From: a virus | Taxonomy: Duplodnaviria; Heunggongvirae; Uroviricota; Caudoviricetes | IMG/VR virus record: IMGVR_UViG_2563366852_000006 | Location: 1-40,933 of that record | DNA: 40,933 bases | Strand: one strand, 5' to 3' | In this document: piece by piece, positions 17,499-22,622 of the stretch | Position numbering within the stretch: the first letter of the stretch is position 1 | Layout of the letters: each line of letters begins with the position of its first letter | Made by a program: the position numbers and the translations under genes | The notes under the pieces: generated by a model | Database searches by the model: none | What the model was told of the DNA's origin: nothing | Seen by the model: the letters and a program-made list of their open reading frames with translations, nothing else

Positions 17499-17932
17499 GC
17501 AGAGTCACCGCGATTATCTCCGCTCTGATTATCTGCATCATCGTCTGCCTGTCATGGGCTGTTAATCATTACCGTGATAACGCCATCGCCTACAAAGAGC
17601 AGCGCGATAAAGCCACATCCATCATCGCTGACATGCAGAAGCGTCAACGTGATGTAGCAGAACTCGACGCCAGATATACAAAGGAGCTTGCTGATGCTAA
17701 CGCGACTATCGAAAGTCTCCGTGCTGATGTTTCTGCTGGGCGTAAGCGCCTGCAAGTCGCCGCCACCTGTGCAAAGTCAACGACCGGAGCCAGCAGCATG
17801 GGCGATGGAGAAAGCCCAGGACTTACAGCAGATGCTGAACTCAATTATTACCGTCTCCGAAGTGGAATCGACAGGATAACCGCGCAGGTTAACTACCTGC
17901 AGGAGTACATCAGGACGCAATGCCTTCGATGA
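17495..17932 (+). CDS. Rz: Spanin inner-membrane subunit Rz
   Basis: N-terminal TM helix then a coiled-coil-like periplasmic domain; overlaps the R stop. Confidence 0.85.
17688..17879 (+). CDS. Rz1: Spanin outer-membrane lipoprotein Rz1, embedded in Rz in another frame
   Basis: 63 aa ORF wholly inside Rz; lipobox LLGVSAC then a Pro-rich segment. Confidence 0.75.
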
Positions 17933-18182
17933 TAGCGATAATTTTACTCATCATCCTTCACATCTGGCTCTGTAGACAGGGTGGTGCTTACTTCTGGAGC
18001 GAATCCAGATTAAACATCTCATTGCTGATGCTTGATATTGAGCATCTGGCGCGCGGTAAGGGCTGTGTTGAGATAAGTGCCAGTTCATTACAAAGCTATA
18101 TCTAATGGAACCTGAAATAATTTGTCATTGTCATGACAAGAAAATTCATTAATGATGAGCTCTCATTATACGGGAGGTAGAT

Positions 18183-18431
18183 ATGGCATTTCGTTATTTT
18201 GAACTTACCGAAAATATTCCTTTTGAGGATGCAAGAGAGCTTCACGTACAGTTCAAACACCACTTAGAATATGTTGTAAAGGCGTTATTTATGCCAGGAA
18301 CACATGAAAAGCATTTAATTGTTGAAGGCCGGGATGACGAATCGATAACACAGATATTTGGTGGGCATGATGAAAAGTTTATGCATCTTTATCATATCGA
18401 TGAATATGAAAAACGTGAAGACTTAATCTAA
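18183..18431 (+). CDS. Hypothetical small acidic protein
   Basis: 82 aa, AT-rich, GGGAGG RBS 6 nt upstream; Asp/Glu/His-rich. Confidence 0.45.
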   Translation: MAFRYFELTENIPFEDARELHVQFKHHLEYVVKALFMPGTHEKHLIVEGRDDESITQIFGGHDEKFMHLYHIDEYEKREDLI

Positions 18432-18546
18432 CCTCCTACGACTGTTTTTATTGCCATCATAAAAGCCATTCCTTGCAGAGTGGCTTTGATAATGGATATC
18501 CCAACAAGCGGATAAGACAATAAATATACCCACCAGGGGATAAACA

Positions 18547-18792
18547 ATGTCTAAAATCACGGTTACACCTGCATAGCAGATCCGCTTAAACCTGCTGGCG
18601 AAACTGTACTATGACACCGCCGCTGCAGCAGACGCGATTAAGTTTGTTGGTGACGATCCGTTGAAGTATCAAATCTTTGTGAACCAGTTAAGCTGGGTAA
18701 CATCTGAAAGCGGGCTGGTAGCCAGAACGACGAAAGCTATCAAAGAGTCGGAAGACACACTACTGTGGTTTGAAGCTGAATCTGGTTCATAA
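18547..18792 (+). pseudogene. Small ORF interrupted by one in-frame TAG at codon 10
   Basis: ATG at 18547 after an AGGGGA RBS; TAG at 18574-18576; the same frame then stays open for 71 more codons to TAA at 18790-18792. Confidence 0.4.
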
Positions 18793-18840
18793 GTGAATGA
18801 ATGTGGTAATTTAATCCTCCGCAAAAAAAAGGGGATAAAA

Positions 18841-19062
18841 ATGCCAAAGAATGTCATAGCTATTTTACCGGGTGACGCGTTTGATCATGTTGTTGTCCAG
18901 GACGACCTGGAGATTGTTACCTTCAGGGGTGACAAGGGCGGCGTGCTTACTATGCCTATCGAGGAGTACGAACTAGACGGGATAAGTTATAACGTCGCAC
19001 GTTGTGACGGTATGGTCACTGACGAAAAAGTTGAGAAGGCTATCAGACACTTCACCAAGTAA
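18841..19062 (+). CDS. Hypothetical small acidic protein
   Basis: Start chosen at MPKNVIAIL after AAAGGGGATAAAA; followed by a terminator. Confidence 0.4.
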   Translation: MPKNVIAILPGDAFDHVVVQDDLEIVTFRGDKGGVLTMPIEEYELDGISYNVARCDGMVTDEKVEKAIRHFTK

Positions 19063-19080
19063 TAATCAGCTTCCGAACCA

Positions 19081-19104
19081 AGCCTCGCAATAGCGAGGCT
19101 TTTT
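19081..19104 (+). terminator. Rho-independent terminator
   Basis: AAGCCTCGC-AATAG-CGAGGCTT followed by TTTT. Confidence 0.6.
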
Positions 19105-19116
19105 AACGACAGAGGT

Positions 19117-19311
19117 ATGACAGTGGTTCTTACAGCTAAGCAGTTTGAAGACCTTGCATCCTTCGCGAAGGAAGATAGCCAGCCTCAATACACCATCGCA
19201 ACCGGAATAATCCCAGAATTCGAAGATGATTGTGAGTTTATCCCCGTTTATGCCGGGCTCATCGCTTATTTAGAGTTACTGAATCACGGTGTATTGCAAC
19301 TCGACCACTAG
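19117..19311 (+). CDS. Hypothetical small acidic protein
   Basis: 64 aa ORF, D/E-rich; weak translation signals. Confidence 0.3.
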   Translation: MTVVLTAKQFEDLASFAKEDSQPQYTIATGIIPEFEDDCEFIPVYAGLIAYLELLNHGVLQLDH

Positions 19312-19385
19312 CGACATTACGCCAAGTATTCATCAAGTGCCTAGTTTAATGTTAAATTATTCCCTCATTCATAAAAGGGAATGTT

Positions 19386-19787
19386 ATGAAAATAGATCAC
19401 GAGTATTTGAAAGGTCTTTTGGAAGCTTTCGAGGCGTCTGAAGAGCCGCATACTGATATAAAGCAGCTGCAGCTGGCTGGGTATGACTACAGCACCGATG
19501 AATTTTTATTCCATATGCGTTTATTGGCTGATCGTCAACTAATTGCTAGAACAGACGGCAAGTATGGGTTTGGTTTCTCTGAGGCTGCTGATGGAGGATC
19601 ATGGTTCGTTATACCGTTACGATTAACTTCAAGCGGTCATGACTTCCTTGAAGCTCTCAGGAATAAAGAGGTTTGGAATTCTCTCAAGACCGGCTTTAAA
19701 GATGCAAGCATTGGAACATTAGTTGACGTTTCAAGGCGTTTGCTGGATGGTTATATTCAGAAAAAAATTGACGACTTAATTGGCTAA
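19386..19787 (+). CDS. Hypothetical protein, possibly DUF2513-like winged-helix
   Basis: 133 aa; N-terminus MKIDHEYLKGLLEAFE resembles DUF2513 proteins from memory; followed by a strong terminator. Confidence 0.45.
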   Translation: MKIDHEYLKGLLEAFEASEEPHTDIKQLQLAGYDYSTDEFLFHMRLLADRQLIARTDGKYGFGFSEAADGGSWFVIPLRLTSSGHDFLEALRNKEVWNSLKTGFKDASIGTLVDVSRRLLDGYIQKKIDDLIG

Positions 19788-19921: not shown

Positions 19922-20272
19922 ATGCCACCACGCACACCAAAAGCCTGCCGTGTTCGCGGGTGCCGCCATACCACCACTGACCCGTCAGGTTATTGCGAAA
20001 GCCACAAAAGCGAAGGCTGGAAGCAATACAAGCCAGGACAATCCCGTCATCAGCGCGGCTACGGTTCGAAGTGGGACGTTATCCGCACGCGTGTGCTGAA
20101 ACGTGACAAAGGTTTATGCCAGTTGTGCCTGCGTGCTGGTGTGGTGCGCGAGGCGAAAACCGTTGACCACATCATCCCTAAAGCGCATGGCGGCACTGAT
20201 GCCGACTGTAATCTGCAGAGTCTGTGCTGGCCGTGTCATAAGGCGAAGACGGCCCGTGAACGGTTGAAGTGA
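19922..20272 (+). CDS. HNH endonuclease (packaging-associated)
   Basis: Cys-rich N-terminus and HNH core (VDHIIPKAHGGTDADCNLQSLCWPCHKAK); located just upstream of the terminase small subunit, as in HK97-type phages. Confidence 0.85.
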   Translation: MPPRTPKACRVRGCRHTTTDPSGYCESHKSEGWKQYKPGQSRHQRGYGSKWDVIRTRVLKRDKGLCQLCLRAGVVREAKTVDHIIPKAHGGTDADCNLQSLCWPCHKAKTARERLK

Positions 20273-20297
20273 TAATAATTCTCAACTGCCTGAGGGG

Positions 20298-20359
20298 AGG
20301 GGCGGGTCAAATCCCTGCGGCCTGACGTCTTCCGGACTGCCCGCCCCATCGTTTTTTTA
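20298..20359 (+). other. GC-rich inverted repeat (GAGGGGCGGG ... CCCGCCCC) with downstream T-run, between HNH and terminase; candidate cos vicinity or terminator
   Basis: Arms at about 20298-20306 and 20339-20348, T-run at 20353-20359. In HK97-type genomes cos lies between the HNH gene and the small terminase gene. Confidence 0.3.
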
Positions 20360-20388
20360 TACCCGCGAAAAATGAAATTTAACCAGGA

Positions 20389-20892
20389 GTGCCGCATATG
20401 GCTGGAACGGCGGGGCGTTCCGGGCGTCGCCCCAAGCCAACGGCGCGCAAGGCGCTGGCCGGAAACCCCGGCAAGCGAGCCCTGAACAAAGATGAACCTG
20501 TTTTTACGCCCATCAAAGGTGTTGAGCCACCGGAGTGGTTCGCTGAAGAAGATCTCCCTCTCGCCACGATCATGTGGCAACTGACAACCAAAGAACTCTG
20601 CGGTCAGGACCTGCTGTGCGTGACTGACCTCGCGGTGCTTGAGCGGTGGTGCGTGGCCTACGAGTTCTGGCGACGTGCCGTGAAAAATATTGCCATACAG
20701 GGCAACACCATCACCGGTGCAATGGGCGGCAGGGTCAAAAATCCGGAGCTGACCGCCAAAAAAGAACAGGAGTCCGAGATGAGCAGCACGGGGGCAATGC
20801 TCGGACTCGACCCCAGCAGCCGCCAGCGTCTGATTGGCCTGGCGGGGCAGAAGAAAGCCACTAACCCGTTTCTGAAAATCATCGAGTCATGA
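20389..20892 (+). CDS. Terminase small subunit (P27 family)
   Basis: N-terminal basic region [24 protein letters not shown]; immediately upstream of and overlapping the large subunit. Alternative start at 20398. Confidence 0.8.
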
Positions 20893-22622
20893 GCCGGAAA
20901 TCTTACCCCAACGTAAATGCTGCCAATCAGTATGCCCGTGATGTCGTGCGCGGAAAGATTGTGGCCTGCCAGTTTGTGATTCAGGCCTGCCAGCGCCATC
21001 TTGATGACCTGATGGCGGAAAAAAGTAAGTCGTTTCGTTACCGCTTCGACAAGGACCTGGCTGAACGGGCCGCGAAATTTATTCAGCTGTTGCCACACAC
21101 CAAGGGGGAGTGGGCATTCAAGAGGATGCCCATCACGCTGGAACCGTGGCAGCTCTTTGTGATCTGCTGTGCGTTTGGCTGGGTCAATAAAGGCTCCCGG
21201 CTGCGCCGCTTCAGGGAGGTGTATACCGAAATCCCCCGTAAGAACGGCAAATCGGCAATCTCTGCCGGTGTTGCCCTGTATTGTTTTGCCTGTGATAACG
21301 AGTTTGGCGCAGAAGTGTATTCCGGTGCCACGACAGAGAAACAGGCGTGGGAAGTCTTTCGCCCGGCTCGACTGATGTGTAAACGCACACCCATGCTGAC
21401 GGAAGCGTTCGGGATTGAGGTTAACGCCTCAAACATGAATCGTCCGGAGGATGGCGCGCGGTTTGAACCGCTGATCGGTAACCCCGGTGATGGTTCATCA
21501 CCCCACTGTGCGGTGGTGGATGAATATCACGAGCACGCCACAGATGCGCTTTACACCACGATGCTTACCGGGATGGGGGCGCGACGTCAGCCACTGATGT
21601 GGGCCATTACTACTGCCGGGTACAACATTGAGGGGCCGTGCTACGACAAGCGGCGGGAAGTTATCGAGATGCTCAACGGGTCGGTACCCAACGATGAACT
21701 GTTCGGGATCATCTATACCGTTGATGAAGGTGACGACTGGACCGACCCGCAGGTGCTGGAAAAAGCTAACCCGAATATTGGCGTGTCGGTTTATCGCGAA
21801 TTTTTGTTAAGTCAGCAGCAGCGTGCGAAAAATAACGCCCGTCTGGCAAACGTCTTTAAAACAAAGCACCTCAATATCTGGGTGTCGGCGCGTTCGGCGT
21901 ATTTCAACCTGGTGAGCTGGCAGAGCTGCGAGGATAAATCACTGTCCCTTGAGCAGTTCGAGGGGCAACCGTGCATCCTGGCCTTTGACCTGGCGCGTAA
22001 GCTGGATATGAACAGTATGGCGCGACTTTATACCCGCGAGATTGACGGTAAAACGCATTACTACAGTGTGGCCCCGCGTTTCTGGGTACCGTATGACACG
22101 GTGTACAGCGTCGAGAAAAATGAAGATCGCCGGACAGCCGAACGCTTTCAGAAATGGGTGGAAATGGGCGTCCTGACCGTTACCGATGGTGCAGAGGTGG
22201 ATTATCGCTACATCCTCGAAGAGGCCAAAGCGGCGAACAAAATCAGCCCGGTCAGCGAGTCACCCATCGACCCCTTCGGGGCGACCGGGCTGTCACATGA
22301 CCTTGCTGATGAAGACCTGAATCCCGTCACTATCTTCCAGAACTTCACCAATATGTCCGATCCGATGAAAGAGCTGGAAGCAGCGATTGAATCGGGACGT
22401 TTTCATCATGACGGCAATCCCATCATGACCTGGTGTATCGGCAACGTGGTCGGCAAAAACATGCCGGGTAACGATGATGTGGTGAAACCCGTCAAAGAGC
22501 AGGCGGAAAACAAAATTGACGGTGCAGTTGCGCTGATTATGGCGGTTGGCAGAGCCATGCTGTACGAGAAAGAAGACACGCTGTCTGATCACATTGAGTC
22601 CTACGGGATCCGCTCGCTTTAA
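20889..22622 (+). CDS. Terminase large subunit
   Basis: 577 aa; ATPase-like N-terminal half and nuclease-like C-terminal half with conserved acidic residues; position between the small subunit and the portal. Confidence 0.9.

Follow-up and report, generated by a model that had tools for sequence, protein, structure and literature searches.

Small proteins of the DUF2560 family (Pfam PF10834, PHROG 571) are encoded by lambdoid and P22-like prophages of Enterobacteriaceae. We analysed a whole stretch of 40,933 nt of prophage DNA, here called the window, and the locus at 18547-18792 (+ strand) of this window resembles the genes of this family. It shares with them a near whole-length match, a length of 81 codons, a predicted four-helix fold and a position after the lysis cassette and before the HNH and terminase genes. 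It differs from them in that the frame is broken at codon 10, in having Trp50 and Trp74, which no other aligned member has, and in giving the lowest family score of the proteins tested. Amber alleles are familiar from laboratory mutants of lambdoid phages, such as lambda Sam7, where CAG or TGG was changed into TAG and the phages are grown on supE or supF hosts. Like these mutants, the locus has an amber codon made by one base change in a phage gene of the late region, at which supE would bring back the wild-type glutamine. In contrast to them, the allele is natural, the gene is probably non-essential, the one host that was checked is without supE, and nothing points to selection for conditional expression of the allele. 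Resident prophages of E. coli are also known to decay, with nonsense and frameshift pseudogenes found in otherwise complete or cryptic prophages. As in these cases, the window has a point lesion in one accessory gene, and its prophage otherwise appears complete. However, its lesion is not private to one strain but fixed in an allele that occurs across prophages with different integrases and diverged packaging genes. We consider that the locus is very probably a fixed nonsense pseudogene of a small DUF2560 accessory gene in the late region of a mosaic lambdoid prophage. Three rival explanations, a product from an internal start, functional read-through and a sequencing error, are unlikely even when taken together.

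The ATG start of the gene lies at 18547-18549, with the sequence AGGGGA (18535-18540) 6 nt upstream. The energy of pairing between Shine-Dalgarno and anti-Shine-Dalgarno at this start is -6.5 kcal/mol, at about the 7th percentile of the window background (median -2.3, 5th percentile -6.9). This upstream and ribosome-binding region is nearly base-for-base the same in the closest intact homologue (L003), which points to AGGGGA as the Shine-Dalgarno sequence of the ancestral gene. Nine sense codons follow (18547-18573), encoding MSKITVTPA, which aligns with MSEITVTPA of the intact homologues and would be the sole part still translated from the native start. The amber codon TAG is codon 10 (18574-18576). 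Behind it, 71 sense codons without a Met continue the frame up to the TAA at 18790-18792. This remnant (18577-18792, codons 11-81 and the stop) is probably untranslated; on the homologue alignment and the AF2 model it can still be read as helices 1-4 of the family. The earlier note had described an ATG with a good ribosome-binding site, the TAG and the 71 codons up to TAA, and all of these are found as it placed them. It had added that the open reading frame track missed the gene for want of a Met after the stop. Indeed, the ORF finder listed at this locus nothing but a 43-aa ORF with a TTG start (18661-18792, + strand), and the track was therefore blind to the DUF2560 gene. This listed ORF, whose TTG derives from CTG in the lineage, is probably no real gene. 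By our estimate, an open run of 71 codons is by itself not very improbable (about 0.03 in random sequence). The frame is nevertheless more than chance, since its read-through product matches the DUF2560 profile on both sides of the stop.

When codon 10 is taken as Gln, the conceptual translation scores 55.2 bits against the Pfam DUF2560 model (E 8.4e-15), well above the gathering cut-off of 25. The match covers profile positions 2-69 of 72 and spans the amber codon; the part after the stop alone scores 49.2 bits. The same translation matches phrog_571, a family of unknown function, with an E-value of 4.7e-23. Among 5.8 billion proteins searched, 33 relatives were found, mostly of 81 residues and 72-89% identical, from Enterobacter, Leclercia, Silvania, Phytobacter, Salmonella and E. 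coli. The DUF2560 family is small, with 65 clusters retrieved by a profile search of 1.84 billion cluster representatives. A scan of species-representative genomes for more DNA homologues gave two loci, a number insufficient for a formal branch model. A structure model was made on the nearest intact homologue as a stand-in for the window protein (AF2/AlphaFold, pLDDT 91.6). It predicts a compact four-helix protein with helices at residues 8-19, 24-34, 38-50 and 57-79. Foldseek searches with this model gave nothing informative, the best PDB match having an E-value of 1.6 and BFVD returning uncharacterised family members alone, and PADLOC had no match for the DUF2560 protein or for three neighbouring products. 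In a paper that mentions DUF2560, the name serves only as a PCR marker, with no statement on function. What the locus lacks is an uninterrupted frame of about 80 codons behind its ATG and ribosome-binding site. Because both start signals are intact and TAG stands at codon 10, the locus is a pseudogene of the DUF2560 family and not a coding member.

At the site of the premature stop, the homologues carry a sense codon. All 23 close full-length intact relatives have Gln at position 10, within the motif MSEITVTPAQQIRLNLL, and 33/33 diverse members aligned from the profile search of the 1.84 billion representatives have a sense residue there, mostly Gln. The four intact homologues that could be read at the DNA level (L003, L004, L006 and L016) all have CAG at codon 10, so the lesion is a single C>T transition, CAG to TAG. 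The guess of the earlier note that this codon would be CAG elsewhere is thus borne out by the protein alignments and by the DNA alike.

The branch leading to the allele carries, besides the nonsense change, about eight nonsynonymous and about eight synonymous changes, as counted by parsimony against L003 and three outgroups. The dN/dS ratio to the nearest intact relative is 0.31, versus 0.08-0.15 among intact homologues (Nei-Gojobori), with small counts in this comparison. Five amino acid changes are specific to the lineage: E3K, R50W, E70D, A71T and L74W. Three of them (E3K, R50W and L74W) fall at positions that are invariant in the 23 intact close relatives. None of the 33 diverse family members in the alignment has Trp at position 50 or 74, D70 and T71 are present together in one of them (P0064), and R50 and positions 70-71 are not conserved family-wide. 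The Pfam score of the window allele, 55 bits, is the lowest of ten proteins (56-69 for the others), and it rises to 63 when the five lineage residues are reverted. Copies of the lineage vary at two synonymous sites (positions 18 and 81) and at three nonsynonymous ones (N21Y, present in the window, D36E and T52I). One loss of the terminal stop codon (TAA>TAC) is seen in two copies (L002 and L025). According to a binomial estimate, the 3:2 ratio of nonsynonymous to synonymous sites fits neutrality and moderate purifying selection alike. As judged from sequence comparison, the substitutions, the dN/dS ratio and the stop loss together lean to the neutral side and suggest relaxed constraint without proving it, the counts being too small to exclude a moderate one.

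Two features of the locus sit less easily with a pseudogene: the frame downstream of the amber codon has no further interruption, and the allele is both common and fixed. A functional product, either truncated or made by read-through, could explain them too. In the former case, an N-terminally truncated DUF2560 protein would be made from an internal start, either TTG at 18661 (43 aa), GTG at 18679 (37 aa) or the ATC or ATT chosen by PGAP, and would keep some function. The downstream frame is indeed intact in all copies. Moreover, codon 39 is TTG in the TAG lineage versus CTG in L003, L004, L006 and L016, a synonymous change that dates to the branch of the stop and lies 7 nt downstream of GGTGA, and the 43-aa product still matches phrog_571 (E 6.7e-7). 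However, no in-frame ATG is present among codons 11-81, and the candidate starts behind the stop (ATC12, CTG16, CTG20, ATT31, TTG39 and GTG45) have in silico energies of -0.4 to -2.8 kcal/mol versus a background median of -2.3, so that none of these near-cognate starts has Shine-Dalgarno complementarity above background. TTG39 itself, with its GGTGA, is at -2.8 kcal/mol, also a background level, and GGTGACGATCCG codes for the conserved GDDP motif and is therefore present for coding reasons. The CTG>TTG change that created the ORF-finder start (18661-18663) is probably coincidental. Furthermore, ATC and ATT are very poor initiation codons. On the structure model, the TTG and GTG products would be without helices 1-2, and the GTG45 product would keep part of helix 3 and helix 4 alone. 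Since the intact protein is modelled as a compact four-helix fold, a product from TTG39 or GTG45 would be half a domain. The GTG at 18679, which is codon 45 of the frame, had been put forward in the earlier note as a possible start; its background complementarity and the little that it would leave of the fold speak against it. We therefore regard a functional protein from an internal start as improbable.

The public annotations also disagree on the start. Deposited proteins of this locus begin at five different places: at the ATC of codon 12 (70 aa), at about codon 16 (66 aa), at the CTG of codon 20 (62 aa), at the ATT of codon 31 (51 aa, the current RefSeq entry WP_435366616.1) and at the GTG of codon 45 (37 aa). 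In E. coli 2c3 (L002) the TAA has become TAC (position 3393 of L002, the equivalent of 18792 in the window) and the frame runs in phase into the next gene (18841-19062 in the window), hence the 141-aa "DUF2560 family protein" fusion that RefSeq holds for this strain. The second copy with this stop loss, L025, is the IMG/VR record UViG_2711768063. The ATC, ATT, CTG and GTG starts set by annotation pipelines provide a clean example of how a nonsense pseudogene is rescued, with at least six different truncated "DUF2560 family proteins" in public databases as the outcome. These should count as one pseudogene.

Alternatively, a suppressor tRNA of the host or a natural leakiness of the amber codon could allow read-through, and the little full-length protein thus made would be either a tolerated residual function or a device for very low expression. 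The suppressor tRNA supE inserts Gln at amber codons, and such an insertion would restore the ancestral residue exactly. The native ribosome-binding site and ATG are intact and conserved, and the allele is fixed and widespread. On the other hand, the window is without a tRNA gene: ARAGORN found none in its 40,933 nt, which removes a phage-encoded suppressor tRNA from consideration. On the host side, 155 of 5424 complete genomes have a supE-type glnV (anticodon CTA); the 60 matches listed are laboratory strains of K-12 type (C600, DH5alpha, DH1, J53 and similar). The wastewater isolate E. coli strain 20, which carries the allele, has wild-type glnV and glnX, both with CTG anticodons. This check covered the supE type in one host. 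The natural hosts of the allele do not appear to provide supE. The stop is also confined to one nearly invariant allele lineage, with all other homologues open at codon 10. At a programmed read-through site the reverse would be expected, with a stop conserved across diverged homologues. Substitutions have also accumulated at otherwise invariant residues. The proposal in the earlier note that the gene is expressed in amber-suppressor hosts alone finds no support in the window tRNA scan, in the supE matches listed or in the glnV and glnX genes of strain 20. Functional read-through is thus improbable as well.

A variant of these explanations is that the amber allele is maintained and not just tolerated. 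The level of a dose-sensitive DUF2560 protein would be kept very low by trace read-through, with Gln or a near-cognate residue inserted at UAG, or codon 39, changed from CTG to TTG in this lineage, would serve as a new start for a 43-residue product of two helices. If true, this would account for a downstream frame that has remained open in all copies and for the rank of the allele as the commonest DUF2560 form in complete E. coli genomes. We hold such maintenance to be very unlikely.

The amber codon is present in every one of 15 independent DNA copies of the allele, which come from complete genomes, drafts, IMG/VR and a gut metagenome. Besides the window, L001 and L002, the set comprises eight other NCBI assemblies, three viral contigs of IMG/VR and one contig from a human-gut metagenome. 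Over window positions 18400-18900, six complete E. coli genomes match at 99.2% or more; L001 and L002 were aligned base by base and keep the TAG. The IMG/VR and gut metagenome copies came from a pattern search in which the mutated base could be C or T and the lineage-specific Lys3 codon was required, and this search of the two collections returned T alone and no CAG copy. Copies of the allele differ from the window by at most two bases in 246. Among 5.8 billion proteins there is no intact one that is more than 89% identical; the best intact protein being at 89%, the un-mutated version of the allele has not been seen. Truncated products of the locus are found on about 170 Escherichia contigs (75 for P0001, 71 for P0034, which is the window's own allele, 18 for P0035 and 7 for P0036). 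A recognisable copy of the gene is present in nine of 5426 complete genomes. Six of these nine are the TAG allele, which makes it the commonest DUF2560 form among complete E. coli genomes having any copy, and the other three are about 79% identical. Carriers of the allele include environmental, animal and human-gut isolates. That the stop is a sequencing or assembly error in the window, as a single base change in an otherwise perfect frame could suggest, has practically no chance of being right and is refuted by the identical TAG in 14 other assemblies, produced independently in different projects and with different technologies, and by the truncated proteins of the TAG allele on these about 170 contigs.

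The genes around the locus follow an order that is shared with intact homologues. In the window, the holin gene lies at 16692, the endolysin gene at 17022 and the Rz gene at 17495, followed by two small ORFs, the DUF2560 gene at 18547, three small ORFs, and the HNH, small terminase subunit and large terminase subunit genes at 19922, 20389 and 20889, respectively. The slot between the lysis genes and the small terminase subunit gene is occupied in the same order by intact copies in L004-L007, L019 and L020, and in L004-L007 the lysis and terminase modules around the intact gene are different ones. An intact 81-codon DUF2560 gene also fills this slot in Escherichia phage vB_EcoS-716R3 and in Klebsiella phage ST13-OXA48phi12.2, and the intact copies in this position include isolated or induced phages. 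A gene of the Q family lies upstream in the window at 14423-14788, and strain 20 has a gene with this annotation at the equivalent position. In the related prophage of strain 20, the annotation extends from the integrase to the tail fibres and contains a single further frameshifted gene.

An alignment of 11 loci shows about 20 variable sites in the block that runs from the endolysin gene to the DUF2513 gene (17022-19787, 2.8 kb). In the region of the HNH gene, the small terminase subunit gene and the first 900 bp of the large subunit gene (19922-21792, 1.9 kb) there are well over 100, nearly all synonymous. A sharp mosaic boundary lies near 19.9 kb, and a second one is seen upstream of and within the holin gene. 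Carriers of the allele have at least two different integrases. The window prophage encodes a 407-aa integrase at its left end (386-1609, + strand) with no adjacent tRNA gene, and the strain 20 prophage has a different one (L018, 4419-5537), with tRNA-Thr (thrW) and proA beside it. One late region is therefore paired with different integration modules. Since the block is almost invariant, the terminase region has diverged and the integrases differ, the dead allele travels in a conserved accessory block of mosaic prophages and is not the private mutation of one strain. The earlier note had considered a recent nonsense pseudogene. A nonsense pseudogene with an ancestral CAG it is; the word recent must be qualified, given that TAG is in 15/15 copies and that their prophages have different integrases and strongly diverged terminase genes.

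Some further observations were made in the neighbourhood of the gene. The ORFs at 18183-18431 (82 aa), 18841-19062 (73 aa) and 19117-19311 (64 aa) are conserved with the block and belong to no Pfam family; two of the three match PHROGs of unknown function (phrog_35226 and phrog_9518) and the 73-aa ORF matches nothing. Two antisense ORFs, 18669-18857 and 18423-18560, match no PHROG family and are therefore treated as spurious. The intergenic sequence just upstream of the DUF2560 gene (18446-18516) has 81-91% identity with many lambdoid or P22-like phages, such as Sf6, HK544, mEp460, mEpX1, IME10 and Ayreon. Its counterpart in those phages also follows the lysis genes and is annotated as a terminator in Ayreon. 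The window sequence folds into a hairpin of 10 bp at about 18462-18487 (AAAGCCAUUC...GAGUGGCUUU) with no U-tract, and the fold z-score is -2.8 for 18428-18550. A promoter and terminator scan of 17900-19500 gave no more than the shuffled expectation. No Rfam element was found at the DUF2560 site. Those above the gathering score are the Hfq-binding small RNA isrK (60 bits) and the C4 antisense RNA (80 bits), adjacent in the early region at 9227-9303 and 9328-9415, about 9 kb away.

The history of this nonsense pseudogene may be proposed as follows. The ancestral gene encoded an 81-residue DUF2560 protein with a predicted four-helix fold and was a small accessory gene of lambdoid prophages of Enterobacteriaceae, placed between the lysis cassette and the HNH and terminase genes. 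One C>T transition then turned the Gln codon CAG at position 10 into amber TAG. Ribosomes would still load at the intact ribosome-binding site and ATG, make the nonapeptide MSKITVTPA and terminate, and the remaining 71 codons would not be usefully translated. The DUF2560 gene is probably dispensable for phage growth. Late transcription in lambdoid phages is antiterminated by Q, as it presumably is here, and the premature stop should then leave the downstream terminase and structural genes free of Rho-dependent polarity. The lesion would thus be tolerated because the gene is likely dispensable and such polarity should be absent from a Q-antiterminated late operon. The dead allele has since reached fixation in its lineage and has passed into mosaic prophages of E. 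coli.

The biological weight of this finding is small, as it adds one more decayed prophage accessory gene, of a family whose intact members have no known function. That a null allele is fixed across different integrase and packaging modules amounts to a natural experiment, which gives evidence, although not proof, that DUF2560 is unneeded for the maintenance of these prophages.
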